The notes under the pieces were generated by a model that saw only the letters and a list, made by a program, of their open reading frames with translations, did not search any database and was not told the origin of the DNA. This document shows, piece by piece, positions 1 through 23,392 of a stretch of DNA of 32,000 bases (the first letter of the stretch is position 1; the number at the start of each line of letters is the position of its first letter). The stretch is from Pseudoalteromonas tetraodonis (GTDB taxonomy: Bacteria > Pseudomonadota > Gammaproteobacteria > Enterobacterales > Alteromonadaceae), in NCBI RefSeq assembly GCF_002310835.1, contig NZ_CP011041.1, positions 360,001 to 392,000 on the forward strand. Reading direction: 5' to 3'. A program made the translations under genes and the position numbers.

Positions 1-909
1 TTTTTAAAAAAGCTCTGGGATAAAATTGTCTCTAGACGCAGAAAAACAAGCAAAGCCAGTATCTTGCATGAAGATCTTACACTTGCCTTTAGAACGTTAC
101 GTGATTACGTTGGTGAAGATATGGAGCGCATCCGTGTTGACTCTAAGCTTACCTACCAAGAGCTTAAGCTGTTTACTGAAGAGTTTGTGCCTTTGTTATC
201 ACAAGTGCTTGAGTATTACCCAGGTGAGCGCCCCATTTTTGATTTATTTGATGTAGAAAGTGAAATTCAAAAAGCACTGCATCGTAAAGTTACTTTAAAA
301 TCGGGTGGTTATTTGATCATAGATCAAACTGAAGCGATGACCACTGTTGATGTAAATACAGGCGCTTTTGTTGGTCACCGTAACCTTGAAGAAACTATTT
401 TTAATACCAACGTAGAAGCAACCTCTGCTATTGCTCGTCAACTAAGGCTGCGCAATTTGGGCGGTATTATTATTATCGACTTTATTGATATGGTAAGCGA
501 TGAGCATAAACGCCGTGTAATGCACTCATTAGAATCTGCACTCGATAAAGATCGTGCCAAATCTAATATCAATGGTTTGTCGGCATTAGGCTTAGTTGAA
601 ATGACCCGCAAACGTACCCGCGAAAGCCTAGAACATGTATTGTGTGATGTATGCCCAGCATGTTCAGGGCGAGGCTCACAAAAAACAGTTGAGACAGTCT
701 GCTATGAAATTCTTCGTGAAATAGTACGTGTTAATCGCGCTTACGATGCAGATAAGTTTGTAGTGTATGCTTCGCCTGCAGTTTGTGAAGCGCTATTAAA
801 TGATGAGTATCATAACCTCGCCGAATTAGAACTATTTATTGGAAAGCAGGTCAATATTCAAACTGAAAGTTTATACAGCCAAGAGCAGTTTGATGTGGTA
901 ATGATGTAA
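1..909 (+). CDS. rng: Ribonuclease G (RNase E/G family), C-terminal ~302 aa; the 5' end lies upstream of the window
   Basis: Frame 1 is open from nt 1 (FLKKLWDKIVSRRRK...). RNase E/G catalytic-core motifs are present: TTVDVNTGAFVG, LGGIIIIDFIDM, CDVCPACSGRG (Zn-link-like). It is followed by yhdP and tldD, as in the E. coli rng-yhdP-tldD order. Confidence 0.9.
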   Translation, partial: FLKKLWDKIVSRRRKTSKASILHEDLTLAFRTLRDYVGEDMERIRVDSKLTYQELKLFTEEFVPLLSQVLEYYPGERPIFDLFDVESEIQKALHRKVTLKSGGYLIIDQTEAMTTVDVNTGAFVGHRNLEETIFNTNVEATSAIARQLRLRNLGGIIIIDFIDMVSDEHKRRVMHSLESALDKDRAKSNINGLSALGLVEMTRKRTRESLEHVLCDVCPACSGRGSQKTVETVCYEILREIVRVNRAYDADKFVVYASPAVCEALLNDEYHNLAELELFIGKQVNIQTESLYSQEQFDVVMM

Positions 910-3900
910 TGAAATTTAAAGCGGCCTGTTTTTATTGTGTGCGAAAATTATGGCAAATAAGTGCTGTAATTTTAGTACTACTGGCCGTGATTGTTTCTAT
1001 TTTAAAATACACCTTACCCTACGCGAACGATTATAAAGGAGATATAGAAAGCTACCTTGATGATAAGTTTGATATTAGTTTATCTATAGGTGCTATATCA
1101 GCAAGTTGGCAAGGCAGTGGTCCCGCTTTAGTACTCGAAGAATTATCATTTAAAGACAACCAAACAGCCCCTATCTCTTTAACCATAGCTAAAACCAGTT
1201 TAGAGCTAAACCTTTGGGAAAGTTTAAAGTCGCTGCAGTTTAAATCAAATTACTTTGTGATCAATGGGTTTCATACCAAGGTTAATGTCGCCAATTTATT
1301 TGCTGGTAATCAAGATGAAGTTTCATTTGAGCAAAAAGAATTAATAGAAGGACTGTTTTTAGGCGAAACCGGTCACTTTGCAATAGAAAACTCCAGCATC
1401 AGCTTTGTACTAGAAGATAACAAAGAACGTAAATTGTTATTAGAAAACATTGTATGGCAAAACCAGGATAAACAGCATCTTGGTAGTGGTAGTCTAGCGC
1501 TACCGGGTATTTCTGTGGGTAATTTTGATGCCCGTATTGCGCTCAAAGGTGAAACCTTAGAGCAAATGGTGGGCGATTTATATGTGCAGGCTAATCAGGT
1601 TGATGTGTCAAATTGGTTAGCCCAGTACATTAATACTCAAAAGCAGCAACTACATAGTGATTTAAATTTGCAAGCATGGCTTAGGCTAGAGCAAGGCTTA
1701 GTAAGTGACGTAAAAGTACAGTGGTTACCGAGTGCGGTAAATTGGCAACTCAATGAGCAAACACAAAAAGTCAGCCTAAGTGAAGGGGGATTTCATTTAT
1801 ACCCTGAGCAAAATAGCTGGCGGTTAAAAAGTACCGGCCTAGCGTTTAGTACCAACGAGATAACGTGGCCTAGCCTCGAATTTGAAGCTTTATTAGGCAA
1901 GCAGAATAAAATATGGCTACAACAACTCGATTTAGCCCTATTAAATGATTTAGCAGAATTAACTAATTTTACTGACTTAACCCCTTTCTTAGCTCGCCAA
2001 CCCAGTGGTGAAATAAAAAACGCGTACCTAGAGTTTGCCGATGCAAAGCAATGGCAACTATGGTTTGAAGCCGATGAAATTAGCTGGCAAGAGAAAAACG
2101 CCGTACCCGCCGCTCAATCTTTAAGGGTTGATGGATTAGTTAATCAGCAATATGGGCGGATCACTATTTTTGGTGAAAACAGCCATTTAATTACAGGTGC
2201 TAGTTTTAGTAATAATATTGACTATAACCAGCTAAACATCGAATTAGATTTAGCTAAGCGCTCAGGCGATTGGCATATTAGCAGTGATAACCTGTGGCTT
2301 GATAACAATGAAGTGACCTTAAGCGCACAGATGCAATTAAGTTTAGGTAAAACGCCTCGCTTAGATTTATATGCCGAAGCATTTGCCCCCGATGCCAGTA
2401 TTGCCGGTCATTATTTTCCCTTAACGTTAATGAGCCCTGAGTTAGTTAGTTATTTAAATGGCGCAATAAAATCAGGTGAAGTAACAAATGCTCAGGTGTT
2501 ATTTTCTGGTCCATTATCAGGCTTTCCATTTGACGATGGTTCTGGGCAGTTTGATGTTTTAGCGCAAATAGATAATGCTACCTATCAATTCGATCCAGCT
2601 TGGCCAGCAGTCACAAATGCCAGTGTAAAGCTGCATTTTGCAAATCAGCGAATGGATATTTATAGCCAGCAAGGCCAACTGGTAAACCTTGACGTTGGCA
2701 GTAGTGTGCATGTGAGTATTGATGACTTAATGGGCGATGCGCCATTGGTGGTTAGTATTGATAAGCAAGCTGAGCTTGAAAAAATGCACGATTTTTTTGT
2801 CGCCACGCCTTTAGCAAATCCATTAGCTGATATTTTTAATGTTGTGCAAGGACAGGGGCTTGCCAGCGCAAACATTGAATTGCTAATCGGTTCACAATTT
2901 AAGGGCGGAGCGAGTGTAACTGGTAAGGTTAATTTACTCGACTCACCTCTTTATATTTCTGCTCCCGGTATTTCGCTTGAGCATTTAAAGGGTGAACTTA
3001 GCTTTAATAATCAACAAATAAACCTCACCGATGCTACGGCTACATGGCTTGGTATGCCATTAACGATTAACTACACTAGTGACGCAAACGCAGAGGATTA
3101 TCGCGCTAATATAAATATAAATGCTCAGCTTGATGCACAAACACTCATAAACCATGGTCAAGGTATCTTAGATGGTTACTTAAGCGGGCAAAGTGACGTT
3201 GATATTGCTTTAGAGCTTAATTTTACCGAGCAAGGGTTTAACTATCGTGCCGAAGTTGAATCGCCACTTATTGGCTTAAATAGTTCCTTGCCAGGAGTAT
3301 ATACAAAAAGCAGTGAGCAAATTTGGCCTCTGAGTGCGGTTATTCAAGGTGATGATATCTCTAATCTGATCACTGCAAATATTAATGAGTTATTTTATTT
3401 CAATGCCATTCTAGACAATACTCAATCGCAGTTTACCAACGCTCATTTTATCATCGGTGAAAAAGACTTAGGGCTTAACTCACAAGATTTAGCAGTGAGT
3501 ATTAATTTAGCGCAGAGTGAGTTATTACCTTGGATTGATTTAATTGATCAAATTATTAATGTGGCTAAAGCGCAGCCTGACAGTGCCTCGCCGGGCGTGA
3601 TGCCGCCTTTACATGAAGTGGTTGCGAATATTAACTCTTTTAACGTGAGTGGCATGCAGTTTAATGATTTTGATATGCGTTTATCGCCCCTAAATAATAA
3701 TTTGCAATTAAAGCTCAATGCCAAAGAGTTAAGAGCCGAAGTATTTATACCTAGCGGGCAATCAAGTCAGCCGATTCGAATTAATAGCGATTATTTAAGG
3801 CTTAATTTTTTAGATACAGAATCAGAGCAACCGAGCGAAAAATCAACCCCTGAACAACTTGCATGGCTTACAAAATTACCGGCTATTGAATTTGAATGTG

Positions 3901-4757
3901 CCGATTGTAAAGTAAGTCATTATCAGCTTGATAAGGTAAGCGCCTCATTGTTAGGCGATGGTAAAAAGCTGCTTATTTCTGAGCTAGTGGTTGATAAGGG
4001 CGACCATATATTACGGACTAAAGGGCAATGGCAGAATGGCCTAACGGCGATGAGCGGTGAACTTAAAAGTGATGATATTGGCGCCTTATTTAATGAGTTT
4101 GATATTACCACCACTATTAAAGACTCAAACGCCAATCTAAATTATCAGCTAAATTGGCAAGCGGCACCTTATGATTTAGACATTGCCAGTTTGGATGGCG
4201 AAATTAGCTGGGATTTAGGCGAAGGCCATTTAACTGAAATCAGTGATGGAGGTGCACGCGTATTCTCATTACTGAGCCTTGATTCATTAGTGCGTAAGCT
4301 AAAGCTTGATTTTAGAGATGTATTTTCTAAAGGTTTTTTTTATAACAGCATGCAAGGCACCATGCAGATAGATAAAGGCATTGCCTATACCCAAGATACT
4401 AAAATGGATGGGGTACCTGCCGATCTCTCTATAAAAGGGTATGCAAATTTAAATACTCTCGAAATTGACTACGACTTAGCCGTGGCACCACAAGTAACCT
4501 CGAGCATTCCGGTGATTGTGGCTTGGATGGTTAATCCAGTAACGGGGCTTGCAGCTTTAGCAATTGATAAAGTGATTCATTCTGCCCGAGTGATCTCAGA
4601 GATCAACTTTAAAGTAACAGGCAAAATGAACGATCCTCAGGTACAAGAGTTAGATCGTAAGAGTCGAGAGGTGACTTTACCGCAAGCAGCACAAAGTCAG
4701 CCACAAGCATCCTCAGAGTTAAAACTTAAAGATGCCGAGGTTAGCGCCACACAATGA
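909..4757 (+). CDS. yhdP: YhdP-family AsmA-like large envelope protein (1282 aa)
   Basis: It has a single N-terminal TM helix (ISAVILVLLAVIVSIL) and is very large. Its conserved position between rng and tldD fits YhdP. The ATG overlaps the rng stop (TAATG at 907-911). The family call rests on size and synteny, not on a motif. Confidence 0.8.
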   Translation: MKFKAACFYCVRKLWQISAVILVLLAVIVSILKYTLPYANDYKGDIESYLDDKFDISLSIGAISASWQGSGPALVLEELSFKDNQTAPISLTIAKTSLELNLWESLKSLQFKSNYFVINGFHTKVNVANLFAGNQDEVSFEQKELIEGLFLGETGHFAIENSSISFVLEDNKERKLLLENIVWQNQDKQHLGSGSLALPGISVGNFDARIALKGETLEQMVGDLYVQANQVDVSNWLAQYINTQKQQLHSDLNLQAWLRLEQGLVSDVKVQWLPSAVNWQLNEQTQKVSLSEGGFHLYPEQNSWRLKSTGLAFSTNEITWPSLEFEALLGKQNKIWLQQLDLALLNDLAELTNFTDLTPFLARQPSGEIKNAYLEFADAKQWQLWFEADEISWQEKNAVPAAQSLRVDGLVNQQYGRITIFGENSHLITGASFSNNIDYNQLNIELDLAKRSGDWHISSDNLWLDNNEVTLSAQMQLSLGKTPRLDLYAEAFAPDASIAGHYFPLTLMSPELVSYLNGAIKSGEVTNAQVLFSGPLSGFPFDDGSGQFDVLAQIDNATYQFDPAWPAVTNASVKLHFANQRMDIYSQQGQLVNLDVGSSVHVSIDDLMGDAPLVVSIDKQAELEKMHDFFVATPLANPLADIFNVVQGQGLASANIELLIGSQFKGGASVTGKVNLLDSPLYISAPGISLEHLKGELSFNNQQINLTDATATWLGMPLTINYTSDANAEDYRANININAQLDAQTLINHGQGILDGYLSGQSDVDIALELNFTEQGFNYRAEVESPLIGLNSSLPGVYTKSSEQIWPLSAVIQGDDISNLITANINELFYFNAILDNTQSQFTNAHFIIGEKDLGLNSQDLAVSINLAQSELLPWIDLIDQIINVAKAQPDSASPGVMPPLHEVVANINSFNVSGMQFNDFDMRLSPLNNNLQLKLNAKELRAEVFIPSGQSSQPIRINSDYLRLNFLDTESEQPSEKSTPEQLAWLTKLPAIEFECADCKVSHYQLDKVSASLLGDGKKLLISELVVDKGDHILRTKGQWQNGLTAMSGELKSDDIGALFNEFDITTTIKDSNANLNYQLNWQAAPYDLDIASLDGEISWDLGEGHLTEISDGGARVFSLLSLDSLVRKLKLDFRDVFSKGFFYNSMQGTMQIDKGIAYTQDTKMDGVPADLSIKGYANLNTLEIDYDLAVAPQVTSSIPVIVAWMVNPVTGLAALAIDKVIHSARVISEINFKVTGKMNDPQVQELDRKSREVTLPQAAQSQPQASSELKLKDAEVSATQ

Positions 4758-8095: not shown

Positions 8096-8602
8096 TTAAA
8101 GCTCAAAAGGAGCGACACCGACAGCTTGCATTGTGTAACCTACTTGGGCGATTTCGCCAGACCAAGTTTGCGTTTTAATAATACCCGTTACAACAATCGC
8201 ATCGTATAAGCTACCGATAGGGACACCGCCTTTAATGGTCACATGAACCAGCTGATTTGGCGGCGGCGGGGGCACATGAATACAGGCACCAAAGTAAGGG
8301 ACTAATAAAAACTCGGTGATAAGTTCGCTATCGCCTTCAAGAGGTACAACAAAACCAGGTAAGCTAACAGACTGCCCATCAAGTGCTTTAACAACTGGCG
8401 CGTCTAAATCAGGTTGCACCCAGTTTTGTTCACTGCCTTCGTGATTAGCTTGTGCTTGAGTATCTATTTGTACATGGCCCTCGGGTATGAGGTCTTCCCA
8501 AAAAATTTCCTTGGGTGGATTTGCAATGCTAGCAAAGCTAATTAGCACTGCGCTTAATAGCATTAAAGAGAGTGTAGTTACTTTAAACAACGTCATGATC
8601 AT
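8096..8602 (-). CDS. DUF3299-domain periplasmic protein
   Basis: It has a signal peptide and the hallmark LLVPYFGACIHVPPPPPNQ motif that I associate with DUF3299. It is the last gene of the ABC cluster, with an 8-nt gap to the permease stop. Confidence 0.75.
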   Translation of the reverse strand: MIMTLFKVTTLSLMLLSAVLISFASIANPPKEIFWEDLIPEGHVQIDTQAQANHEGSEQNWVQPDLDAPVVKALDGQSVSLPGFVVPLEGDSELITEFLLVPYFGACIHVPPPPPNQLVHVTIKGGVPIGSLYDAIVVTGIIKTQTWSGEIAQVGYTMQAVGVAPFEL

Positions 8603-8610
8603 CCTAAAGT

Positions 8611-9858
8611 TTATATTTTTATACTCATACCATCACTGAGAGAATAAAAGTAAGCGCGTGTAGCGGGGATCAAGCCAATAATAAATCCCGCAGCCATAAT
8701 AACGCCAATCAAAGTGAGTTCATAGTCAGAGAGCATGCTGATATTAATACTCACTCCAGCTTGGCTTTGTAAGTAACCCGCGGTCGTACCCATAAGCGCA
8801 TAAAATAAAATACAGCCTACCAAGCAACCTAAAAAGGTGGTAAGCAGTGATTCCATACTGATCAGCGAAAATAATTGCCAAGGGCGGGCACCCACAGAAC
8901 GCAGTATTGCCAGTTCTCTGCGGCGTTGATTAAGGTTAGCAAGTAATGTGGTTAACATACCGAGCAAGCTAATAATGACCACCACAAATGAAAATAACAG
9001 CAGTATTTTTTCTATTATTGCCAGCATTTCCCAGAGCTCTTTTAAAGTGACTGTGGGCATAATCGCTAATAGAGGCTCTTGTTTATATTGGTTAATGTTG
9101 CGCCTAATTTGTAGCGTATAAAGCGGTGAGTCGAAGCCCATTAAAAAGGCGGTAATTTGTTTTGGGTGCCCAATTAATGCATGGCTCGAGTGATCATGAT
9201 GATCGTCATGATCATGATGGCCGCCACCATGGATCAGCTCAATTGCCGCCAGTGGCACATGCAAGGTTTTATCCACCGGGGTACCGGTAGGCTTTAAGAT
9301 ACCAACCACTTTAAAAGGGTTATCATCATGATGATGAAAGCTAGTATTGCCCATGCCATGAGAAATCACAATTTCATCACCAATTTTATAGGCCAGTTTA
9401 CTTGCAACCTCACTACCTATAACAACTTCATTGATGCTAGAAAAAGCCTGTCCTTGTTCAAATGCTAAGGGCTGTTTTTTAGCAAATCGGTAGTGCTTAA
9501 AATAATCGAGTGTGGTGCCTAAGACAGCTTGACCTTTATGGCTATCGCCAAGGCTGATAGGAATGCTCCACTTAACCCCGCGCTGTTTTGTTATGTATTG
9601 ATAGCTTTGCCAACTCACCCCATTGTTGGTATGGCCAATTCTAAATACCGAGGAGAGGAGTAATTGAATATCGCCAGTGCGTGCGCCAACAATTAAATCG
9701 GTACCCGAAATGGTATTACTAAAACTACTTTTAGCATCTACGCGAACTCGCTCAATACTGAGTAATAACATGACGCTAATCGCAATAGTGAGCAATGTGA
9801 GTAATACGCTGGCACGTCTATTGAGCAAACTTTTATAGGCAAGTTTAAATAAAATCAT
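8611..9858 (-). CDS. MacB/FtsX-type ABC transporter permease with His/Asp-rich periplasmic inserts
   Basis: The architecture is TM1 (res ~18-36), a ~240-aa periplasmic domain, then three C-terminal TMs (FtsX-like). His-rich patches are SFHHHDDNPF and HGGGHHDHDDHHDHSSHALIGHP. It overlaps the ATPase gene by 4 nt. Confidence 0.85.
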   Translation of the reverse strand: MILFKLAYKSLLNRRASVLLTLLTIAISVMLLLSIERVRVDAKSSFSNTISGTDLIVGARTGDIQLLLSSVFRIGHTNNGVSWQSYQYITKQRGVKWSIPISLGDSHKGQAVLGTTLDYFKHYRFAKKQPLAFEQGQAFSSINEVVIGSEVASKLAYKIGDEIVISHGMGNTSFHHHDDNPFKVVGILKPTGTPVDKTLHVPLAAIELIHGGGHHDHDDHHDHSSHALIGHPKQITAFLMGFDSPLYTLQIRRNINQYKQEPLLAIMPTVTLKELWEMLAIIEKILLLFSFVVVIISLLGMLTTLLANLNQRRRELAILRSVGARPWQLFSLISMESLLTTFLGCLVGCILFYALMGTTAGYLQSQAGVSINISMLSDYELTLIGVIMAAGFIIGLIPATRAYFYSLSDGMSIKI

Positions 9859-10541
9859 ACATCACCCTGTAAACTTACTAAGTCGATTGTGCGGCTAAAG
9901 AGTGGCTTTAATGTTTCATCGTGACTGACAAAAACAAGCGTGCTGTTACTTTTTTTTGCTTGTTCAAATAGCAGCTTAATAAAGCTTTCACGATTTTGGG
10001 TATCAAGTGCTGAAGTAGGCTCATCGGCAATAATAAGTTCAGGGCTGCCTATAAATGCGCGTGCTGCAGCAACACGCTGTTGTTGCCCAATACTTAAAGT
10101 GGCAACATTTTGATTATGAAAGTGCGCCTCTAACCCCAGTGCATTGAGTAATCTGGCTGCTTCACTCTCTAAATTATCGGCTTGGCTGAGCATGTGTTGC
10201 TGACGCTTTTTCGAAAATTGGCACCCTAAACACACGTTTTCTAATGGGGTTAAATAAGGTAGTAAATTAAAGTTTTGGAAAATATAGCCAATATGATCCG
10301 CTCTAAATGCATCGCGCTGTGCGTTGGTGAGCGCACTTAGGTTTTGGTTTAAAACACAAAGTTGGCCGCTAGTGGTTACATTAATGCCTGCCAGTAGCGC
10401 TAGTAAGGTAGATTTACCACTACCGCTTGGACCATGTAAAAAAACATGTTCCCCAGCATTAATCGTAAGCTGCTTAATAGCGAGAGTCGGGGTGACTGCG
10501 CTTTTTTGCCATTTGAAAGAGACATTCTCAAGGTTGATCAT
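9855..10541 (-). CDS. ABC transporter ATP-binding protein (LolD/MacB/FtsE-like)
   Basis: Walker A GPSGSGKST, Q-loop IFQNFNLLP, signature LSIGQQQRV (variant of LSGGQ), Walker B LIIADEPTSALD, H-loop FVSHD. Confidence 0.9.
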   Translation of the reverse strand: MINLENVSFKWQKSAVTPTLAIKQLTINAGEHVFLHGPSGSGKSTLLALLAGINVTTSGQLCVLNQNLSALTNAQRDAFRADHIGYIFQNFNLLPYLTPLENVCLGCQFSKKRQQHMLSQADNLESEAARLLNALGLEAHFHNQNVATLSIGQQQRVAAARAFIGSPELIIADEPTSALDTQNRESFIKLLFEQAKKSNSTLVFVSHDETLKPLFSRTIDLVSLQGDV

Positions 10542-13040: not shown

Positions 13041-13706
13041 ATGTTAGAGCGAGCATGGCAAGTTATTGCAAAACGTCGTTATTTATTAGTACTGGGTGTA
13101 TTGTTTAGTGTATCGGCTTTTGGTAATACCATTAATTTGGTTATTAAAGATCAGCATGACCAAGTATTGCCTAATGCTGTCGTAGAAATAAATCATTTAC
13201 CTTCTTCAAAAACTTCAGGCAATTTACCCACAGCGGTAATGGATCAAGTTGATAAACAGTTTTCTCCAGAGTTGCTTATTGTGCACCAAGGTCAGTACGT
13301 CGACTTTCCAAATAGCGATAATATTCGCCACCATGTTTATTCTTTTTCAAAAGCTAAACCTTTTCAATTAAAGCTCTATTCTGGCCAGCCAGAAGAACCT
13401 ATTAAGTTTGATAATCAAGGTGTTGTTGTTCTAGGCTGCAATATTCATGACTCCATGGTGGGCTATATATATGTCGCTAACAGTAGTCATGTGTATACCA
13501 GTAACGAGCAAGGCCAGGTAAAGCTGCAAGTAGACACTTTTCCTGTGCAAGCCAGTGTTTGGCATTCACTGCAAACAGCTCCCTTGGATAATAAAAAACA
13601 GTTTAATATAGAATCAACCAGCCCGTTATCAATAACTATAAATACATCTACCCCTGCACCACGTAATACCTTTGGCAGTCAATTTAGGGAAGGCAATGGC
13701 CAATAA
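13041..13706 (+). CDS. Periplasmic cupredoxin-like protein with an amicyanin-type Cu-ligand loop (family often annotated 'methylamine utilization protein')
   Basis: The ATG at 13041 gives a signal peptide (MLERAWQVIAKRRYLLVLGVLFSVSAFG). The candidate T1Cu ligands are NIRHHVYSF, followed ~35 aa later by GCNIHDSM (C-x2-H-x2-M). Confidence 0.7.
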   Translation: MLERAWQVIAKRRYLLVLGVLFSVSAFGNTINLVIKDQHDQVLPNAVVEINHLPSSKTSGNLPTAVMDQVDKQFSPELLIVHQGQYVDFPNSDNIRHHVYSFSKAKPFQLKLYSGQPEEPIKFDNQGVVVLGCNIHDSMVGYIYVANSSHVYTSNEQGQVKLQVDTFPVQASVWHSLQTAPLDNKKQFNIESTSPLSITINTSTPAPRNTFGSQFREGNGQ

Positions 13707-16011
13707 TTTACGCAGTCGTATTACAACGCTTTGCGTTGGCTTGGTATTACTCACTACCTTGGTTAGTTTACTGAGCTTTTGGTGGTCTACCAGTAAATTT
13801 CAGGCAGAAAAAGTGCAACAAAATATAACGGTTGCGCAAAGCGTTTATAAACAATATTTAAAATCAAAAGAGAGCTTATTATTAACAGCCGCAAAGGTGT
13901 TAACCGCTGATTTTGGTTTTAAGCAAGCGGTTGCAACTCGTGATGCCGCCACTATTAGCAGTGTGTTATACAACCACAGTCAACGGATCAATGCGGATCT
14001 TATGCTGTTGCTCGATTTATCAGGGCGGTTAGTATCAGCTAATGTTAATGCACAAAATTTTGCCGATAATCTACAGCCCTTAATGGATGAGTTATTAAAT
14101 AACTCTGAGCAATCGAGCTTTGTGGTGTTAAATAACCAGCTGTACCAAGTGATTTTATTGCCCGTTAAAACTCCCAGAACCATAGCTTACAGTTTGGTCG
14201 GATTTAAAATAACATCTGCAGTGGCCACTGAACTAAAAAGCTTAACCGGAATGGAGGTTAGTTTTGTTGCGCAATTAGATGATTTTGCAACAAGCTCGCT
14301 AGTATCCCAACCAGATAACTTTCAACCAATAGCGTACTTTACCAATAAAACTACGGCTCGTTTTTTTGCCGAATACTTGGCCTATGAAAACGAACAAATA
14401 GCTTTACCCTCTTTACAATCGCATCCGATAACCTTACTGCTTAGCGCAGATTTAACCTCGAGTTATCGCGATATTGAGCAATTATTATTAACGCTGATCA
14501 CACTCGCTGTTTTAACTATGTTATTTGGTGTGATCACCAGTAGTTTGTTAGCAAATAATTTAACGACAGGACTTTCACAGTTAGCGGTTATTGCCAGACA
14601 GTTTGCAAAAGGCGACTACCGCTTTAAATTTGAAGGTAAAAAGCAAAGCAGTGAAATAGAAACGCTCGTGAATGCTTTTAATAACATGGGTAATGATATT
14701 AATAAGCGTGAGCAGCAAATAAGTTTTCAAGCACATCACGATACTTTAACAGGGTTTTATAACCGTTCTGCTATGTTAGATTTATTAGCTAAGCGGCTCA
14801 CTAATGATGCGCGGTACACGCTTGTTGCTATTGATATAAAAGGCTTAAGGCATATAAACGATAAGCTTGGTCCGCAAGTAGGGGATGGATGTTTAATTGC
14901 AGTGGCAAACCGTATTCGTCAATTTTCTGATGAGCTAGGTGGTTTTCATGCCCGTATTGGTGGCGATGAATTTTTAACGGTTTACCCTTGTGCAGAGGTT
15001 GAGCAGGTAAAATGTGCAGTGGCTGATTTACTCAAGCAATTACAGCTAGCTTACAAGGTTAAAAATTTAAAAATAAGCTTACGTTTTAATGCTGGTATTG
15101 TGCAATACCCAGAGCAAGGGACTAAAGCAGACGATTTAATGCGACGTGTACTCATTGCTGTAGATGCAGCTACAACGAGTCAGCAAAGCTTACATTATTA
15201 TCAAGACGGTGAAGATGAGGCGCATTTAGACCGTTTAATTATGCTTGATGAACTCAAACAAGCAATTGATGATGATAATGGACAATTATTTATGACCTAT
15301 CAGCCTAAATTGAATATTAAAAGCCAGAAAATTGATAAGGTAGAGTCTCTTATTCGTTGGCAACGAAAAGATGGTGGCTGGGTCTCGCCTGAGGTCTTTA
15401 TTGATTTAGCCGAGCAGTCAGGGTTAATAGTAGAGCTGACCGCTTGGGTTGTCGAGACTGTGATTGCACAAATAGCCGATTGGTCAAAAAAGGATATTCA
15501 TTTACAAGCCGCTATTAATGTTTCTGCCCAAGATATTGCTCATTCAGGTTTTCACGCTTCGTTGGTAGCCACCTTAAATAAATACCAAGTAAACCCAAGC
15601 TCTGTCACTATTGAACTGACGGAGCGCGATATGATTGAAAATGAAGCCCAAGGTATTAAAGCGTTAGAAGATTTAAAAACTATTGGCGTTAAAATCTCAT
15701 TAGACGATTACGGTGTCGGACAAACATCATTGGGGCGCTTAAAAATGTTACCTATTGATGAGCTTAAGTTAGATAAATGCTTTATTTTAACCCTGCACGA
15801 ATCACAAAAAGATCAATACATAGTGCGCTCTTCAATCACACTGGGTCACCAATTGGGGTTTTCTGTTGTGGCTGAAGGGGTAGAAACCGCTGAGTCTTTA
15901 TCAATGCTTCACGAAATGCAATGCGATCATGCGCAAGGTTACTATTTAAGTCGCCCTTTAAAAGCGCAGCAATTAGAACAATGGTTAGAGGAATATCAGC
16001 GTGTACATTAA
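13696..16011 (+). CDS. Membrane-bound GGDEF-EAL protein (diguanylate cyclase/phosphodiesterase) with a large periplasmic sensor domain and a HAMP-like linker
   Basis: The ATG at 13696 is preceded by AGGGAAGG and overlaps the upstream gene by 11 nt. Two TMs flank a ~230-aa periplasmic region. GGDEF motif RIGGDEF at 14953-14973. EAL-domain motifs ESLIRW (15343-15351), ELTE, DDYGVGQTSL, KLDKCF, AEGVET, QGYYLSRP. Confidence 0.9.
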   Translation: MANNLRSRITTLCVGLVLLTTLVSLLSFWWSTSKFQAEKVQQNITVAQSVYKQYLKSKESLLLTAAKVLTADFGFKQAVATRDAATISSVLYNHSQRINADLMLLLDLSGRLVSANVNAQNFADNLQPLMDELLNNSEQSSFVVLNNQLYQVILLPVKTPRTIAYSLVGFKITSAVATELKSLTGMEVSFVAQLDDFATSSLVSQPDNFQPIAYFTNKTTARFFAEYLAYENEQIALPSLQSHPITLLLSADLTSSYRDIEQLLLTLITLAVLTMLFGVITSSLLANNLTTGLSQLAVIARQFAKGDYRFKFEGKKQSSEIETLVNAFNNMGNDINKREQQISFQAHHDTLTGFYNRSAMLDLLAKRLTNDARYTLVAIDIKGLRHINDKLGPQVGDGCLIAVANRIRQFSDELGGFHARIGGDEFLTVYPCAEVEQVKCAVADLLKQLQLAYKVKNLKISLRFNAGIVQYPEQGTKADDLMRRVLIAVDAATTSQQSLHYYQDGEDEAHLDRLIMLDELKQAIDDDNGQLFMTYQPKLNIKSQKIDKVESLIRWQRKDGGWVSPEVFIDLAEQSGLIVELTAWVVETVIAQIADWSKKDIHLQAAINVSAQDIAHSGFHASLVATLNKYQVNPSSVTIELTERDMIENEAQGIKALEDLKTIGVKISLDDYGVGQTSLGRLKMLPIDELKLDKCFILTLHESQKDQYIVRSSITLGHQLGFSVVAEGVETAESLSMLHEMQCDHAQGYYLSRPLKAQQLEQWLEEYQRVH

Positions 16012-16831
16012 GTTATTATTCGCCTTGGCACTCTCATTTTGTAGTGCGTTAAGTATGGCTGCTACGGGGAAATTATTAGCAACACCTGGGGTGTCTCAAA
16101 TTGAAGGCAGTGCAGGGGGCGGATTAGTTCCTTGGGCACAATTAGCAGGATATGCCAGTGAAGACGAATGGGCTGTTAATGGTTTTTGTAGTCGTGCTGA
16201 TGTTACTGACTACCGTCTTGATGCCTGCGGCATGCAACTAAACCTATTCAATCGTGTTGAGCTCAGTTATGCAGTGCAGCAGTTTGATGTGCCTGCACTC
16301 AATACCGAAATAGAGCAGTCAATTTCTGGGGCTAAAATTCGTTTATATGGTGATGTAGTTTACAGTCAGTGGCCACAACTAAGCATGGGTTTACAGCATA
16401 AATCACTAGAGGATGGCACAGTAGCAAAGTTAGTTGGCGCAAAAAATACCAGTGGTACAGATGTGTACCTAGCCGCCAGTAAATTACATTTGGGCGCACT
16501 TGCTGGGTACAACTGGTTTTGGAATGTGACCACCCGCTACAGTAAAGCCAATCAGCTAGGACTGTTAGGATATGGCGGGGCTAATGAGGGCAGCCATATT
16601 TTGCTAGAAGCAAGTAGTGCAGTTTTTGTAAGTCGTGAACTTGCCATTGGTGTTGAATATCGACAAAAAGCCAACAACTTGGGGTTAGGCGAACAAGATT
16701 GGCGTGATTTATTTATAGCGTGGATACCAAATAAGCATATGAGTGTGACTGCGGCCTATTTAGATTTAGGGCGGATTGCTGGTGTTGATAATCAAACTGG
16801 CTGGTATTTATCGGTTACGGGGTATTGGTAA
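16001..16831 (+). CDS. DUF3034-family protein, probable outer-membrane beta-barrel
   Basis: GTG start at 16001, with GAGG 9-10 nt upstream and an 11-nt overlap with the upstream gene. Signal peptide MYIKLLFALALSFCSALSMA. Alternating-hydrophobicity segments and a C-terminal aromatic (SVTGYW) fit a barrel. The DUF3034 name is from memory of similar sequences. Confidence 0.6.
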   Translation: MYIKLLFALALSFCSALSMAATGKLLATPGVSQIEGSAGGGLVPWAQLAGYASEDEWAVNGFCSRADVTDYRLDACGMQLNLFNRVELSYAVQQFDVPALNTEIEQSISGAKIRLYGDVVYSQWPQLSMGLQHKSLEDGTVAKLVGAKNTSGTDVYLAASKLHLGALAGYNWFWNVTTRYSKANQLGLLGYGGANEGSHILLEASSAVFVSRELAIGVEYRQKANNLGLGEQDWRDLFIAWIPNKHMSVTAAYLDLGRIAGVDNQTGWYLSVTGYW

Positions 16832-17250
16832 TGAAACTAAGTGTATTTATTTTTTGTTGTTTAAACTTACTTGCAGGGTGTACAACCCAACCCAACACCT
16901 CTTTGTATCACCAGCTTGGCGAACAAGCTGGGCTTGAGAAACTAACTGATAGTTTTATTACACAAATAGGTAATGACAAACAAGTGTTTCATTACTTTGA
17001 GCACAGTAATATCAGTCATTTTCGACAAGGGTTTATTAGCCATTTATGTTCGCTGGTGGAGGGCCCTTGTGAATATAAAGGTGACTCTATGGTTGCTATT
17101 CATACTGGCATGAATATAAACGAAAAAGACTTCAATCACGTTGTCGATTTATTAATAAATGCAATGAACGAGCAAAATATCCCACATACAGTGCAAAATA
17201 AAATTTTAGCTAAAATGGCGCCATTGCGTGGCGAAATTATTAAGATTTAA
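16831..17250 (+). CDS. Group-1-like truncated (2/2) haemoglobin with a lipoprotein signal peptide
   Basis: The ATG at 16831 shares 1 nt with the upstream stop (TAATG). MKLSVFIFCCLNLLAGC has lipobox LAGC followed by Thr at +2. The bacterial-globin core is LYHQLGEQAGLEKLTDSFI...FHYF...GPCEYKGDSMVAIHTGMNI (candidate proximal His)...DFNHVVDLL...MAPLRGEI. Confidence 0.75.
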   Translation: MKLSVFIFCCLNLLAGCTTQPNTSLYHQLGEQAGLEKLTDSFITQIGNDKQVFHYFEHSNISHFRQGFISHLCSLVEGPCEYKGDSMVAIHTGMNINEKDFNHVVDLLINAMNEQNIPHTVQNKILAKMAPLRGEIIKI

Positions 17251-18997: not shown

Positions 18998-19348
18998 TTA
19001 ACTATAAGGGCAATTTTTACAACCATTTTTGCAGCAAGTACCACGCTTTAAAAAATACCACTTACTAAACACCATGTAATTGTTCTGCATGGTGTAATCT
19101 AACCCTTCAATTAAATTATCATTACTTCTAAATTGTTTAGCGAAAGCTATTTGGGTTTTAATTGGCTGGGTATATATAGTTTCTAAATAGTAATTAATTT
19201 TAGCAAGAGTACATGATCGGCATAAGCAGCTGGTTGCTGTATCATCGAGTGGTAAAATAGCGGGTAACTGATAACACCAACATGTGGTTATATCATTAAC
19301 ATTACAGTTAAGCGTTGTATTACATTGGCTGCAGTTTATCTGGGTCAT
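18998..19348 (-). CDS. Cysteine-rich CWC-type protein with a DUF5522-like C-terminal part
   Basis: MTQINCSQCNTTLNCNVNDITTCWCYQLP (CWC motif), then C-terminal FLKRGTCCKNGCKNCPY. I prefer the start at 19348; in-frame upstream ATGs at 19390 and 19483 are possible. Confidence 0.55.
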   Translation of the reverse strand: MTQINCSQCNTTLNCNVNDITTCWCYQLPAILPLDDTATSCLCRSCTLAKINYYLETIYTQPIKTQIAFAKQFRSNDNLIEGLDYTMQNNYMVFSKWYFLKRGTCCKNGCKNCPYS

Positions 19349-19391
19349 TTTAGGTCTTATTAACAGTAGAGCAGCAAGAATAACAAACATT

Positions 19392-19718
19392 ATGAATATA
19401 CAAAAAGCATTGGCTGAATTTATTACTTTTGGTGAGCATAGAGACGAAGCAATCTCAGTAATAGTGTCAAGCTCTGCGCACAATGCTAAGCCACTTTATA
19501 AGTTAACGACACCCGTATTGATTGATGTGCTTAAGCGCTGTGTAAGTAATGAAATAGATCTCGATGATCTCGCGCTTTGGGCCAACGTCATTGAATCAAG
19601 AGCAGATATAGATAGCGCTGAGCATGAAGGGGTTATTTATGCGCTGAGTAATAGCGAGCAAATGGGCGAGTTTAGCCACAAAAAGCTTGAACAATTATTA
19701 GCATTATTAAAGGACTAG
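19392..19718 (+). CDS. Hypothetical protein (108 aa)
   Basis: ORF from the ATG at 19392 (MNIQKALAEFITFGEH...). The upstream part of the tracked ORF overlaps the divergent gene. No family recognised and no clear SD. Confidence 0.4.
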   Translation: MNIQKALAEFITFGEHRDEAISVIVSSSAHNAKPLYKLTTPVLIDVLKRCVSNEIDLDDLALWANVIESRADIDSAEHEGVIYALSNSEQMGEFSHKKLEQLLALLKD

Positions 19719-20962: not shown

Positions 20963-23392
20963 ATGCAAAAAATATCACGATTAAGTTACATACTCTTTAC
21001 TGTGCTGCTCTGTATGATAACCCAAGCGCACGCAGCAATTAAGTCTATTGACGAATTTACTGAAAAAATGAACCATTTCCCGGGTTATTTTTCTTTCTTT
21101 TACGATACGCAAAACGGCAATGTGTATTTAAAGGTTGATAAACTTGAACAACAATTTTTATTACAACACAGCTTACCTTATGGAGTAGGGTCTAACGATA
21201 TTGGTTTAGATAGAGGCCAATTAGGCGGTACTTATTTGGTACAGTTTGAGCGCTTTGGCAATAAGGTTATGTTGCGCGCTGTAAATACTTACTACCGTGC
21301 AAACACAAGTAATCTAGCAGAGCAGCAAAGCGTTAAAGAAGCGTTTGCATCCAGTATTTTGGCGGGTTTTAAAGTTGTCGCGCAAGATGATAATGCTGCA
21401 TTAATTGATTACACCCCCTATTTACTAAGCGATGTACATGGCGTAAGCCGTACTTTAGCTGCGCGCAAGCAAGGGCAGTTTAGCCTTGATGAGTCACGCA
21501 GTGCGGTATTTATGAATCGCTCAAAAGCATTTGTAAAAAATACTGAACTTGAAGCCATTCTCACCTTTAAAGGGTCTAAACCAGGTGAATATGTGCGCCA
21601 AGTGAGTGCTGATCCATACGCGCTAACCGTGCATATGCACCATTCATTAATCAAATTGCCTGATGACAATTACACGCCACGTAAATTCAGCCCGCAATCG
21701 GGTTATTGGAGTGTGGAGCATAAAAATTATGCAGCAGGGCTCGATGAGTCTATGTATGTGCGTTACATTCCACGCCATCGGTTAATAAAAAAAGATCCGA
21801 GTCTGGCTGTAAGTGAACCGGTCGAACCCATTGTGTATTACTTAGACCCTGGCGTACCTGAACCAGTAAAAACGGCTTTATTAGAAGGCGGGCAATGGTG
21901 GAATGATGCCTTTAATGCAGCAGGATATAAAAATGCATTTGAAGTTAAAGTGCTACCAGATAATGCTGATCCTATGGATGTGCGCTACAACGTTATTCAA
22001 TGGGTGCATCGCGCAACTCGTGGTTGGTCTTATGGCAGTTCAATTATAGACCCACGTACAGGCGAAATTATTAAAGGCCATGTCACACTAGGATCGCTAC
22101 GAGTACGCCAAGATATTTTAATTGCTGAATCACTGGCAGCGCCTTATTTAAAAGGCAATGAAGTGGCAAGCACTTTACATGCAATGGCACTTGATCGTAT
22201 TCGTCAACTCAGTGCTCACGAAATTGGTCATACACTGGGTATTGCGCACAACTTTGCTGCGTCAGTAAATAATCGAGCTTCGGTGATGGATTATCCACAT
22301 CCGTTATTGAGCTTTGCAGATAATGGTCAGTTAGACGTATCTCAAGGTTATGCTAAAGGTATGGGCGCATGGGATACCCAAGTGGTCAAATATGGCTACA
22401 GTGATTTTACCGGACAAGATGAAAGCGCAGCACTCGCTGCTATTTTACAGCAAAATAAAGCGCAAGGTTTGGCGTTTATTTCTGACAGTGATGCCCGTGC
22501 CAAAGGTGGGGCGCACCCTACAGCGCACCTTTGGGATAACGGCAGTAATCCAAGTGAAGAATTACTTAGAGTGCTTGATGTACGAAAGCAGGCGCTTGGG
22601 CAGTTTGGTATTAATAATATAAAAACTGGGGTTGCGCTATCGCAATTGGAAGAAAAGCTAGTACCACTTTATTTGTTCCACCGTTATCAAGTTGAAGCGG
22701 TTGCTAAGCTTATCGCGGGCGTTGATTATGACTATGAGATACGCAGTGATGCACCCGTTAAAGGCGCCCAAGTTGTAACTAAAGAGGCTCAACAACAAGC
22801 GGTTAATGCCATTTTAGTGACCCTAAAAGCAAGCAACTTAACGCTTCCAGAGTCGATACTTTCCTTAATCGTACCTAAAGCGTATGGCGAGTCTAAATCA
22901 CGAGAAAGTATAGTGGGGCGTACCGGCTTAACTATGGATGCACTTGCATTACCTGAAGTCGCTGCGCAGCATAGCTTATCGCTATTACTTAATGCTCAAC
23001 GATTAAATCGTTTAGCACAGCAACAAGCACGTGATAACCGCTTTTATGGCTTAGATGAGCTGCTTAAACAATTATATAAGCAGGTGTTTAATGTATCAGC
23101 GCCTGCCACTATGACAGGAAAAGTAACGCAACGAGTACAGTACTTAACGGCAAAAACTATGGCTGATCTTGTCGCTAGCCAAACACTAAGTCCAGAGGTG
23201 CAAGCGCAACTGCATTTTTACCTAAATAAACTAGCGGATGAGTTTAATCAACACTCTTTACTGAGCCATCCTGAAGTAGGTGACAGCGCATTTAAAGACT
23301 ATTTAGCGGCGCAAATTAATCAGTTTTTAACAACAGGCCAGTGGCCTGATAACTTTAAAGCGTTACCCATACCACCAGGCTCACCTATTTAA
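20963..23392 (+). CDS. Secreted zinc-dependent metalloprotease (DUF5117/DUF4953-type)
   Basis: Signal peptide (ITQAHA/AI). Zincin motif HEIGHTLGIAHNF plus SVMDYP. The ~800-aa size is typical of this family. Confidence 0.8.
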   Translation: MQKISRLSYILFTVLLCMITQAHAAIKSIDEFTEKMNHFPGYFSFFYDTQNGNVYLKVDKLEQQFLLQHSLPYGVGSNDIGLDRGQLGGTYLVQFERFGNKVMLRAVNTYYRANTSNLAEQQSVKEAFASSILAGFKVVAQDDNAALIDYTPYLLSDVHGVSRTLAARKQGQFSLDESRSAVFMNRSKAFVKNTELEAILTFKGSKPGEYVRQVSADPYALTVHMHHSLIKLPDDNYTPRKFSPQSGYWSVEHKNYAAGLDESMYVRYIPRHRLIKKDPSLAVSEPVEPIVYYLDPGVPEPVKTALLEGGQWWNDAFNAAGYKNAFEVKVLPDNADPMDVRYNVIQWVHRATRGWSYGSSIIDPRTGEIIKGHVTLGSLRVRQDILIAESLAAPYLKGNEVASTLHAMALDRIRQLSAHEIGHTLGIAHNFAASVNNRASVMDYPHPLLSFADNGQLDVSQGYAKGMGAWDTQVVKYGYSDFTGQDESAALAAILQQNKAQGLAFISDSDARAKGGAHPTAHLWDNGSNPSEELLRVLDVRKQALGQFGINNIKTGVALSQLEEKLVPLYLFHRYQVEAVAKLIAGVDYDYEIRSDAPVKGAQVVTKEAQQQAVNAILVTLKASNLTLPESILSLIVPKAYGESKSRESIVGRTGLTMDALALPEVAAQHSLSLLLNAQRLNRLAQQQARDNRFYGLDELLKQLYKQVFNVSAPATMTGKVTQRVQYLTAKTMADLVASQTLSPEVQAQLHFYLNKLADEFNQHSLLSHPEVGDSAFKDYLAAQINQFLTTGQWPDNFKALPIPPGSPI

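Follow-up and report, generated by a model that had tools for sequence, protein, structure and literature searches.

Group 1 truncated haemoglobins (trHbs) from M. tuberculosis (HbN), Tetrahymena, Paramecium and Shewanella benthica share a 2-on-2 fold, a proximal His at F8, Phe at B9 and CD1, a small residue rather than Trp at G8, and the EF-loop motif G-P-x-Y-x-G...M-x3-H. Tyr B10 is present in ~80% of trHbs (PMC4720485), and is therefore common but not obligatory. Hydrophobic distal pockets in truncated haemoglobins lead to very fast O2 dissociation (PMC4720485). The globin studied here is encoded in a window of 32,000 nucleotides of Pseudoalteromonas tetraodonis (contig NZ_CP011041.1, positions 360,001 to 392,000), and all coordinates below are positions in this window. 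It has every one of the shared group 1 features, with Val at G8, and finds its best sequence and structure matches in this group. Unlike these proteins, it has a predicted lipoprotein signal peptide, a conserved pair of cysteines (Cys73 and Cys80) and a periplasmic genomic context. Moreover, Tyr B10 and the E7 and E11 Gln residues are all replaced by apolar residues, and the Gly-Gly hinge motifs are cut to single Gly residues (G30, G78).

The sole precedent in the literature that we searched is a set of predicted periplasmic fusions between cytochromes and trHbs in cable bacteria. In these lPHCtX proteins, which are described as exclusive to cable bacteria, a pentahaem cytochrome c and the globin form one polypeptide, so that a trHb with a signal peptide is combined with an electron-transfer module (PMC11976967, PMC7875522). 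The cassette described here resembles this arrangement. In contrast, its gammaproteobacterial globin would be a separate lipoprotein, accompanied by a copper protein, a DUF3034 protein and a c-di-GMP enzyme; the sequences of the two systems were not compared. Apart from this precedent, our literature search found no lipoprotein or periplasmic truncated haemoglobins, no function for DUF3034 and no description of this operon, and the globin-family surveys PMC4720485 and PMC1457004 do not mention signal peptides. The statement in the first-pass annotation that globins are normally cytoplasmic is thus qualified by a predicted exception.

Haem sensors are genetically tied to GGDEF/EAL enzymes in globin-coupled sensors, in DosC/DosP, in H-NOX proteins with HaCE enzymes and in NosP, and the cassette shares this link. 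These sensors are cytoplasmic proteins of the 3-on-3 sensor globin, H-NOX or FIST type, usually fused or bound to the enzyme. The cassette globin, however, is of the 2-on-2 type and predicted to lie outside the cytoplasm, and its enzyme would sense through a periplasmic dCache_3 domain. It does not qualify as a globin-coupled sensor, in which an N-terminal sensor globin and a transmitter domain make up one cytoplasmic polypeptide: it is a separate protein of 139 aa with a signal peptide, and the GGDEF-EAL protein has no globin domain. A second comparison is offered by YfiBNR and NspS-MbaA, in which an inner-membrane c-di-GMP enzyme is regulated by periplasmic or outer-membrane lipoprotein partners that are the products of separate genes of its operon. 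Likewise, the cassette enzyme has a periplasmic sensor domain, a HAMP domain and envelope partners in the same operon. In contrast to these systems, haem and copper cofactors are predicted, and we saw no sequence kinship to YfiB, YfiR or NspS. Finally, the first gene shares with amicyanin, pseudoazurin and MauL a cupredoxin fold with the amicyanin spacing Cys-x2-His-x2-Met and an upstream His, but it has an extra beta-sandwich domain and no methylamine dehydrogenase genes nearby.

Composition and conservation of the cassette

The globin gene is the last of four genes in the order MauL-like cupredoxin, dCache_3-HAMP-GGDEF-EAL, DUF3034, globin:

13041..13706, + strand: gene 1, predicted exported MauL-like cupredoxin, 221 aa (ATG at 13041; the open reading frame opens with TTG at 13029)
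13672..16011, + strand: gene 2, predicted inner-membrane dCache_3-HAMP-GGDEF-EAL sensor enzyme, 779 aa
16001..16831, + strand: gene 3, DUF3034 protein, 276 aa from GTG at 16001 (Pfam DUF3034, 6.4e-108)
16831..17250, + strand: gene 4, putative lipoprotein group 1 truncated haemoglobin, 139 aa (open reading frame, Pfam and structure model)

The reading frame of gene 2 shares 35 nt with gene 1 and 11 nt with gene 3. The globin frame runs exactly from the ATG at 16831 to the TAA at 17248-17250, and its ATG shares one base with the TAA of the preceding gene (TAATG). We infer from the in silico evidence that the four genes form a translationally coupled operon. Scans for promoters and terminators at the cassette returned no more sites than in shuffled sequence.

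Loci were collected by a genome scan with a 14-sequence alignment as query, which gave 498 genome hits. The full cassette was found in 72 of the 80 species genomes, which represent different genera and several gammaproteobacterial orders with unrelated flanking genes, and DUF3034 lay directly upstream of the globin in all 80. Among the eight remaining loci, contig ends truncate three and an assembly gap interrupts one; in the other four, the GGDEF-EAL gene alone is missing. Three P. phenolica genomes and Litoribrevibacter have the copper protein, DUF3034 and the globin but no phosphodiesterase. Since this three-gene core persists without the phosphodiesterase, it must serve some purpose by itself and cannot exist solely to signal to the phosphodiesterase. 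Among distant metagenomic relatives (~30–40% identity), the cassette was present in 7 of 8 informative cases (5 complete, 2 cut by contigs), and in the eighth a far homologue of the copper protein directly adjoins the globin. Two further distant representatives were on contigs too short for context. The operon is thus widely conserved and apparently unstudied, and the translational coupling of the globin to DUF3034 is likewise new.

Gene 1 encodes a signal peptide, a cupredoxin domain and an additional beta-sandwich domain. Its AlphaFold model (pLDDT 76.8) had pseudoazurin, plastocyanin and amicyanin as top Foldseek matches in the PDB (E 1e-4 to 1e-3). Residues H97 and C133-x2-H136-x2-M139 are invariant and H98 nearly so; hence we infer a type-1 copper protein with a His, Cys, His, Met ligand set, copper binding itself being an inference. 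Pfam gave no match, the NCBIfam pseudoazurin model matched weakly (E 0.004, 17 bits against a cut-off of 110), and sequence and profile searches of the PDB returned nothing significant. Databases name the protein 'methylamine utilization protein' (NCBI) or 'plastocyanin' (JGI). A Tat signal was considered and rejected, as the Arg-Arg pair is not kept in orthologues.

Gene 2 encodes, in this order, TM1, a periplasmic dCache_3 domain, TM2, HAMP, GGDEF and EAL, with hydrophobic segments at residues ~16–40 and ~268–295. The Pfam E-values are 8.5e-67 for EAL, 5.8e-27 for GGDEF, 5e-10 for dCache_3 and 5e-6 for HAMP, and the NCBIfam DgcN/YfiN model matched in part. Across 73 orthologues the EAL catalytic motifs (E-S/A-L, DDYG, K-L/I-D, EGVE, QGY) are invariant, while the GGDEF motif is degenerate in ~5–20 of them, depending on the position. 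The conserved activity is accordingly inferred, in silico, to be that of an EAL phosphodiesterase.

The DUF3034 protein has a signal peptide and two invariant cysteines (C63 and C76). No transmembrane helix follows the signal peptide. As for the aromatic beta-signal expected at the C-terminus of such barrels, 78 of 80 orthologues finish in F, W or Y, with a G-Y-[FW] end. The excess of beta-amphipathic character is weak (0.099 against 0.059 +/- 0.03 in shuffles), and sequence and profile searches of the PDB found no solved homologue. The protein is probably an outer-membrane beta-barrel, although the barrel fold is only inferred.

Predicted export signal, haem site and cysteine pair of the globin

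The following elements lie within the globin gene:

16831..16881, + strand: predicted type II (lipoprotein) signal peptide MKLSVFIFCCLNLLAG with the putatively lipidated Cys17 (codon 16879-16881), PROSITE PS51257
16954..16959, + strand: B9-B10 pair Phe42-Ile43, aligned to Phe24-Tyr25 of Tetrahymena trHb
17020..17034, + strand: distal E-helix residues Phe64 (E7, codon 17020-17022) and Phe68 (E11, codon 17032-17034)
17047..17070, + strand: Cys73 (codon 17047-17049) and Cys80 (codon 17068-17070), at the end of the E-helix and in the EF loop
17101..17103, + strand: proximal His91 (F8) in VAIHTGM, aligned to His73 of Tetrahymena trHb

Lipoproteins were recognised by a positive N-region, an uncharged hydrophobic region and a lipobox [LVI..]-[ASTG..]-[GAS]-C with the Cys at 15–35. 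The N-terminus MKLSVFIFCCLNLLAGC satisfies PROSITE PS51257, with Lys2, the box L-A-G-C, Cys at position 17 and no charged residues in the six positions ahead of the lipobox. Cys9 and Cys10 also lie inside the signal peptide, Cys17 being the predicted lipidation site. Of the 80 orthologous loci, 68 satisfy the rule strictly and 76 do so once the box is relaxed. Over ~80 species the signal peptide drifts in sequence without losing its lipobox Cys, hydrophobic core or positive N-terminus. This is also the case within the genus: among residues 1–22 of 21 diverse Pseudoalteromonas sequences, M1 and C17 alone never vary, and the core and positive N-terminus persist despite the divergence. In 75 orthologues the median position of the Cys is 17, the mean hydropathy of the core is 2.4, and the N-region has a net charge of at least +1 in 70. 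We consider it almost certain that the signal peptide is genuine and under selection, although lipidation and cleavage by Lsp are inferred from sequence alone.

The lipobox recognised in the first-pass annotation is upheld by these results. Its prediction of outer-membrane targeting, based on Thr at +2, needs a qualification. None of the orthologues has Asp at +2, but the +2 sorting rule was established for enterobacteria, so anchoring in the outer rather than the inner membrane is only inferred.

The globin domain itself matched Pfam Bac_globin (PF01152) with E 5e-14 and 53 bits, against a cut-off of 21. Its best solved relatives are Tetrahymena trHb (3aq5, 1.5e-10) and M. tuberculosis HbN (3e-9), and all PDB matches with E < 1e-3 are group 1 trHbs without exception. 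The AlphaFold model (pLDDT 83.5) aligned by Foldseek to trHbN structures with target-normalised TM scores of 0.84–0.90 and an rmsd of ~1.9–2.0 A over 116 columns. The protein is thus predicted by the model, not by a solved structure, to be a 2-on-2 helical sandwich of the group 1 type.

Key positions were set on a HMMER alignment to Tetrahymena trHb, whose residues were identified via the mutant structures Y25F, Q46E and Q50E. The haem-binding features are well conserved. Of 331 aligned domains from the representatives, 318 have His at F8 and 11 have a gap there, and 272 have Phe at CD1 (Phe56 here). The M-x3-H motif, which spans the pre-F region and F-helix of haem-binding truncated haemoglobins, shows no variation. 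In the distal pocket all five positions hold apolar residues, including Ile43 (B10), Phe64 (E7, opposite Gln46 of Tetrahymena trHb), Phe68 (E11, opposite Gln50) and Val104 (G8). The last is small and apolar rather than the Trp of groups 2 and 3; in the family census this position holds L, V, F or I. Hence, beyond Phe B9, nothing remains of the Phe B9-Tyr B10 pair and polar E7/E11 network for O2 stabilisation.

Cys73 and Cys80 are invariant in sequence sets A1, A2 and A3. They co-vary, and they never occur together with Tyr B10; Cys80 was seen without Cys73 in one fragment only, in which the region of Cys73 is missing. Such pairs typify proteins whose folding takes place in an oxidising compartment, and we infer a Cys73-Cys80 disulfide, for which there is no direct evidence. 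All 83 informative single-domain representatives combine the Cys pair, a B10 residue other than Tyr (I, L, V, M or F), apolar E7 and E11, and His F8, and most of them carry a lipobox or another signal peptide. These traits mark a large coherent subfamily rather than a one-off.

The first-pass annotation had read the gene as a bacterial 2/2 globin, with Phe-Ile at the B9-B10 pair and a proximal His, and had named a non-globin fold as a possible refutation. All three readings held, the first by Pfam, PDB matches and structural comparison, with assignment to group 1, and the other two by the Tetrahymena alignment; the comparison with trHbN upholds the fold. The loss of Tyr B10 was also correct, yet apolarity extends to the whole distal pocket. 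The claim of two cysteines in GPCEYKGD failed: only Cys80 lies there, and Cys73 precedes it in HLCSLVEGPC. The Cys pair as a hallmark, the large subfamily and the conserved periplasmic and outer-membrane operon had not been seen. As a joint claim, that the gene encodes an exported haem globin belonging to a four-gene cassette is very likely on the in silico evidence, with export, lipidation and haem binding all inferred.

A putative sensing role and its rivals

Our best overall explanation is that the cassette encodes an extracytoplasmic haem/copper module for gas or redox sensing that feeds the c-di-GMP phosphodiesterase. This is an inference, and we would not give it better than an equal chance of being right. 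The globin apoprotein would cross the inner membrane unfolded, be lipidated at Cys17, and be sorted to one of the membranes, probably to the outer membrane's inner leaflet beside DUF3034. In the periplasm it would take up haem b and form the Cys73-Cys80 disulfide. Because the globin has no distal hydrogen-bond donor, it is expected to hold O2 weakly and to bind NO or CO tightly. NO selectivity through an apolar pocket is the logic of NO-selective H-NOX domains and of cytochrome c'. The copper protein would act as redox partner, setting or reading the oxidation state of the haem, and the ligand or redox state of the pair would be relayed to the periplasmic dCache domain of the phosphodiesterase. 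An outer-membrane tether of 6–8 residues is too short to reach an inner-membrane sensor, and therefore either a shuttle or retention at the inner membrane is needed. Possibly, the soluble copper protein moves between tethered globin and sensor, comparable to YfiR between YfiB and YfiN. In this way periplasmic NO, O2 or redox conditions would tune c-di-GMP, and with it the choice between biofilm and motility. Taken by itself, this sensing mechanism is tentative, and we lean slightly against it: export, lipidation, haem content, the disulfide and the partner contacts are all inferred, without experimental data.

The main rival, which remains possible, is a periplasmic redox enzyme pair. Here, respiratory-chain electrons would reach the haem globin by way of the copper protein, and the globin would reduce or detoxify periplasmic O2, NO, nitrite, peroxide or peroxynitrite; the phosphodiesterase would merely be co-expressed, its own dCache domain sensing something else. 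In support, the pairing of globin and cupredoxin is the most conserved link, surviving without the phosphodiesterase and also without DUF3034, and the cable-bacteria fusions have been proposed as donor-fed periplasmic O2 reductases (PMC11976967, PMC7875522). However, NO dioxygenation and O2 reduction normally require a stabilised oxy-haem, and this pocket lacks a hydrogen-bond donor. Moreover, co-expression alone accounts poorly for a phosphodiesterase gene that lies between the copper-protein and DUF3034 genes, in overlapping frames, in 72 of 80 genomes.

A role in haem capture or trafficking, with the globin as hemophore or haem chaperone and DUF3034 as outer-membrane conduit, is unlikely. 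Gene pairs of a lipoprotein and an outer-membrane barrel are typical of nutrient capture (PMC8560813, PMC7857515), and the globin and DUF3034 genes are translationally coupled. Yet the cassette encodes neither a TonB-dependent receptor or plug domain nor a haem ABC transporter or haem oxygenase, DUF3034 is small (~250 mature residues), and a copper redox protein and a c-di-GMP enzyme as constant partners fit uptake poorly.

Still less probable, indeed very unlikely, is a globin fold without haem, whose apolar cavity holds a lipid or other hydrophobic ligand. The fully apolar pocket would suit this reading, haem loading after Sec export requires a route that the cassette does not encode, and known non-haem globin families provide a precedent (PMC8717448). 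Against it stand the conservation of His F8 and Phe CD1 and the invariant M-x3-H motif reported above.

A start-codon artefact, in which translation begins downstream and the globin stays cytoplasmic, can be all but excluded. Orthologue entries of 128, 127 or 115 aa in the databases do start within or after the signal peptide, and a TTG at Leu25 is a candidate start. Such a downstream start had been named in the first-pass annotation as a refutation; checked on the sequence, this TTG is the sole in-frame start-type codon before the globin core, and a direct reading found no purine-rich stretch upstream of it. The entries of 128 aa open with M-[LVI]-LSAC, which is inside the lipobox region. Lipobox Cys, hydrophobic core and positive N-terminus are kept in orthologues whose signal peptides are otherwise unrelated, and the ATG lies on the upstream stop in 51 of 76. 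A cytoplasmic globin would also be at odds with the conserved Cys pair and with an operon whose every other product is an exported or membrane protein.

Lastly, we rejected the idea that the globin sits as a plug in DUF3034 to form an electron conduit of the porin-cytochrome kind: going by general barrel sizes, ~250 residues make too small a barrel for a 120-residue globin.

Significance for globins and the cell envelope

Bacterial globins are treated as cytoplasmic handlers of O2 and NO. An exported, lipid-anchored subfamily, probably disulfide-bonded and devoid of every distal hydrogen-bond donor, would extend this field to the cell envelope, and it poses a specific problem: by what route does a globin exported through Sec acquire its haem b? 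In several database entries the annotated start of the globin falls within its signal peptide and that of DUF3034 lies beyond its own, which masks the envelope location of both. The fixed association further gives a testable function to three unstudied families: the copper protein, DUF3034 and the dCache-type phosphodiesterase.

A bolder form of the sensing explanation is that the cassette represents a new class of extracytoplasmic gas or redox sensor. In this reading, periplasmic NO, O2 or redox state would be reported to the c-di-GMP phosphodiesterase by three proteins acting together: a tethered, disulfide-locked globin whose apolar pocket resembles that of H-NOX, its blue-copper partner, and an outer-membrane protein dedicated to the system. 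We doubt this reading a little more than we credit it. If true, it would be the first globin-based signalling outside the cytoplasm, widespread in marine and halophilic Gammaproteobacteria. The cassette is thus a candidate route by which marine bacteria may base biofilm decisions on NO, O2 or redox conditions outside the cell.

Genomic context of the globin

The genomic context is the chief new result of this analysis. In silico, the globin gene is firmly linked to those of three partners with predicted identities: a copper protein, an envelope protein and a phosphodiesterase that senses the periplasm. The four genes lie on one strand of the window with overlapping ends:

13029/13041..13706, + strand: gene 1, unannotated, 221–225 aa
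13672..16011, + strand: gene 2, dCache_3-HAMP-GGDEF-EAL protein
16001..16831, + strand: gene 3, DUF3034 protein
16831..17250, + strand: gene 4, globin, an intact ORF of 139 codons

One genome per species was scanned, and 498 genomes contained a relative; the best 80 of these were fetched and inspected together with nine distant contigs. About 58 of the 80 are Pseudoalteromonas; the rest are Rheinheimera, Colwellia and other Colwelliaceae, Thalassotalea, Methylophaga, Bermanella, Pleionea, Litoribrevibacter and unclassified Alteromonadaceae. DUF3034 lies immediately 5' of the globin in all 80 genomes, and the full four-gene order is present in 72. The incomplete cassettes comprise three truncated by contig ends, one interrupted by an assembly gap, and four in which the GGDEF-EAL gene is the sole one missing (Litoribrevibacter and three P. 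phenolica genomes). No other signalling gene had clearly taken its place beside the cassette at these P. phenolica and Litoribrevibacter loci. Across the 80 genomes the flanks of the cassette vary by genus, and the SAICAR synthase and rhodanese flank is confined to Pseudoalteromonas.

The cassette was also found in 7 of 8 distant single-domain relatives (~30–40% identity) with informative contigs, including the complete 3.97-Mb chromosome CP014226; five of these cassettes are complete and two are truncated by contig ends. In the eighth relative DUF3034 and the phosphodiesterase are absent, and directly 3' of the globin lies a gene distantly homologous to gene 1 (E 4e-13), with Cys-x2-His-x2-Met retained.

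Several neighbouring genes were also observed. Six Methylophaga loci (L055, L056, L058, L074, L082 and L083, ~8400..9850, − strand) carry a second GGDEF/EAL-like gene, convergent and just 3' of the globin, which matches the window enzyme at E ~1e-39 to 1e-52. A Halomonas locus (L090) has a separate GGDEF gene downstream. In Litoribrevibacter (L085, 5325..6200, + strand), a 291-aa ECF-type sigma factor with a C-terminal extension is encoded directly 5' of the copper-protein gene. Possibly, this sigma factor offers an alternative output where the phosphodiesterase is absent.

The surroundings of the cassette in the window (909..4757, + strand; 8096..10541, − strand; 20963..23392, + strand) are ordinary chromosomal genes, encoding YhdP, a nitrilase-family CN hydrolase, TldD/PmbA, a MacB-like ABC exporter with DUF3299, a family 25 glycosyltransferase, a rhodanese, FBPase and a DUF4953 Met-zincin. 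No signs of mobile elements were seen around the cassette. A Cys-rich 161-aa ORF (18998..19483, − strand), whose C-terminus matches DUF5522, and a 144-aa ORF (19284..19718, + strand) overlap on opposite strands, and the choice made by gene callers differs by locus.

A globin subfamily with predicted export and an apolar distal pocket

By sequence, predicted fold and haem-site residues, the globin belongs to group 1 of the truncated haemoglobins, and automatic annotation already calls it 'group 1 truncated hemoglobin'. Its product matched Pfam Bac_globin (E 5e-14, 53 bits, cut-off 21), and the only solved structures matched at E < 1e-3 were group 1 truncated haemoglobins, such as those of Tetrahymena (1.5e-10) and M. 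tuberculosis (HbN, 3e-9). The AlphaFold model, built with 21 homologues (pLDDT 83.5), gave target-normalised TM values of 0.84–0.90 on trHbN structures.

The N-terminus, MKLSVFIFCCLNLLAGC, meets the PROSITE PS51257 lipoprotein rule. Among 21 diverse Pseudoalteromonas homologues, Met1 and Cys17 are the sole invariant residues of positions 1–22, compared with 37 invariant positions in the mature domain. An ATG followed by a lipobox is present in 76/80 species-level genomes, and 68/80 satisfy the strict rule. In these orthologues the lipobox Cys has a median position of 17, mean hydropathy across the hydrophobic core is 2.4, net charge of the N-region is positive in 70/75, and none has Asp at +2. 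The sequence thus drifts freely while keeping the physico-chemistry of a type II signal peptide, which argues that it is translated and selected as such. We consider it very likely that this is a genuine signal peptide; lipidation and location remain predictions. The globin ATG overlaps the upstream TAA stop by one base in the window, and an overlap of the ATG with the preceding stop codon recurs in 51/76 orthologues. Deposited orthologues of 128 aa (P0017, P0050–P0064), 127 aa (P0116–P0119) and 115 aa (P0081, P0087) begin within or just past the signal peptide, and truncated entries open M-[LVI]-LSAC. These short entries are likely start mis-calls that conceal the lipoprotein nature of the globin.

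Key positions of the haem pocket were set on a HMMER alignment to the Tetrahymena trHb, with numbering anchored by the deposited mutants Y25F, Q46E and Q50E.

Haem-pocket residues (position: window globin precursor; Tetrahymena trHb)
B9: Phe42; Phe24
B10: Ile43; Tyr25
E7: Phe64; Gln46
E11: Phe68; Gln50
F8: His91; His73

CD1 and G8 we take to be Phe56 and Val104, from the numbering of M. tuberculosis HbN (Phe46, Val94), a register supported solely by the HMMER ranges (query 15–135 versus HbN chain 5–125). The first-pass annotation had assigned the proximal His and a changed B10 by eye. These assignments held, but the change is larger than it proposed, as all distal positions are apolar. Its placement of two Cys in the GPCEYKGD segment failed: only Cys80 lies there, and the other Cys of the mature domain is Cys73. 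In silico, an intact proximal haem site is combined with an apolar distal pocket in a globin whose cofactor and export as a lipoprotein are predicted. The Tyr B10 and polar network that it lacks are common in group 1 truncated haemoglobins, but not universal.

Covariation of Cys73 and Cys80 is near-perfect (140 and 129 of 331 domains), and no domain that has the canonical Phe-Tyr...Gln pocket carries the pair. From this covariation, without bond geometry, we infer a Cys73-Cys80 disulfide, consistent with extracytoplasmic folding.

When 1.84 billion cluster representatives were searched with a profile, 3783 matched at E <= 1e-3. The top 150 included 84 single-domain proteins, 83 of which span the diagnostic positions; the remaining one is a C-terminal fragment. 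All 83 have Cys73, Cys80 and His F8; their B10 is never Tyr but I, L, V, M or F, their E7 is Phe, Leu, Ile or Tyr, and their E11 is almost always apolar, chiefly Leu or Phe. A lipobox is recognisable in 66 of 80 near-full-length representatives; among the rest, several carry a signal peptide of the classical cleavable type. Hence, the globin with its predicted export represents a subfamily rather than a one-off.

Multidomain proteins were also retrieved. P0126–P0129, P0131, P0136, P0142, P0193 and others are bacterial lipoproteins or secreted proteins with 2–5 tandem truncated-haemoglobin domains, which have apolar distal pockets and the Cys pair in some domains but not others. The single context inspected, of P0128 (locus L097), is not the four-gene cassette. 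P0121 (1386 aa), P0123 (1882 aa), P0125, P0130, P0138 and others have 6–12 canonical Phe-Tyr...Gln domains and no signal peptide; they ranked at the top because scores sum across domains, and are likely eukaryotic.

Partner proteins

Gene 1 encodes a signal peptide and has no Pfam match and a weak NCBIfam match to pseudoazurin; database names are 'methylamine utilization protein' or 'plastocyanin'. Its AlphaFold model (pLDDT 76.8) matched pseudoazurin, plastocyanin and amicyanin, and His97, Cys133, His136 and Met139 are invariant with amicyanin spacing. The product is likely an exported type-1 copper electron-transfer protein, with its fold predicted, and copper binding and export inferred.

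The gene 2 product has a periplasmic dCache_3 domain (~225 residues) between two hydrophobic segments, after which come HAMP, GGDEF and EAL. Across 73 orthologues none of the EAL catalytic motifs varies, but the GGDEF motif has degenerated in some, from which c-di-GMP hydrolysis is inferred as the conserved output.

DUF3034 has a signal peptide if the GTG at 16001 is used as start. Two of its Cys are invariant, and 78/80 orthologues end in G-Y-[FWY]. Structure-database sequence and profile searches found no solved homologue, and no transmembrane helix was found. Its likeliest fold, by inference, is an outer-membrane beta-barrel. Gene callers dispute the start (276 aa from GTG 16001 versus 258 aa; window 16001..16831, + strand; L001 and L002, 5225..6001), and the 258-aa form loses the signal peptide kept in all aligned orthologues.

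Possible functions of the cassette

We propose that the globin is loaded with haem b in the periplasm; E. coli cytochrome b562, among other haem b proteins exported through Sec, is a precedent for this. The globin would be held near the membrane by a tether of 6–8 residues, as predicted in 66/75 orthologues. It would bind O2 weakly and NO or CO tightly, because no residue could hydrogen-bond bound O2. The fastest O2 off-rates in truncated haemoglobins come with hydrophobic pockets (PMC4720485), and NO-selective H-NOX domains and cytochrome c' rely on the same hydrogen-bond-free principle. The copper protein would be the obvious redox partner, and the state of the pair may be relayed to the dCache domain of the phosphodiesterase. 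As in YfiB-YfiR-YfiN, the soluble copper protein could move back and forth between the sensor and the tethered globin. Possibly, the globin works like haem sensors that govern c-di-GMP.

The main alternative is that the globin and copper protein act in the periplasm as a small oxidoreductase whose substrate is O2, NO or nitrite, which is possible and compatible with signalling. This role parallels that proposed for cytochrome-trHb fusions of cable bacteria (PMC11976967, PMC7875522), and the persistence of the other three genes where the phosphodiesterase is missing speaks for some activity of their own. However, the phosphodiesterase gene is in mid-operon and translationally coupled in 90% of genomes, which favours signalling. 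Haem trafficking by the globin, a non-haem ligand in its fold and a mis-called start codon are all less likely than the sensing or oxidoreductase readings.

Identity as a globin-coupled sensor was ruled out, as the globin has another fold, is unfused and is predicted to be extracytoplasmic. Our literature search found no paper noting its export, Cys pair, pocket or operon. The context of the cassette offers a testable function for three uncharacterised families.
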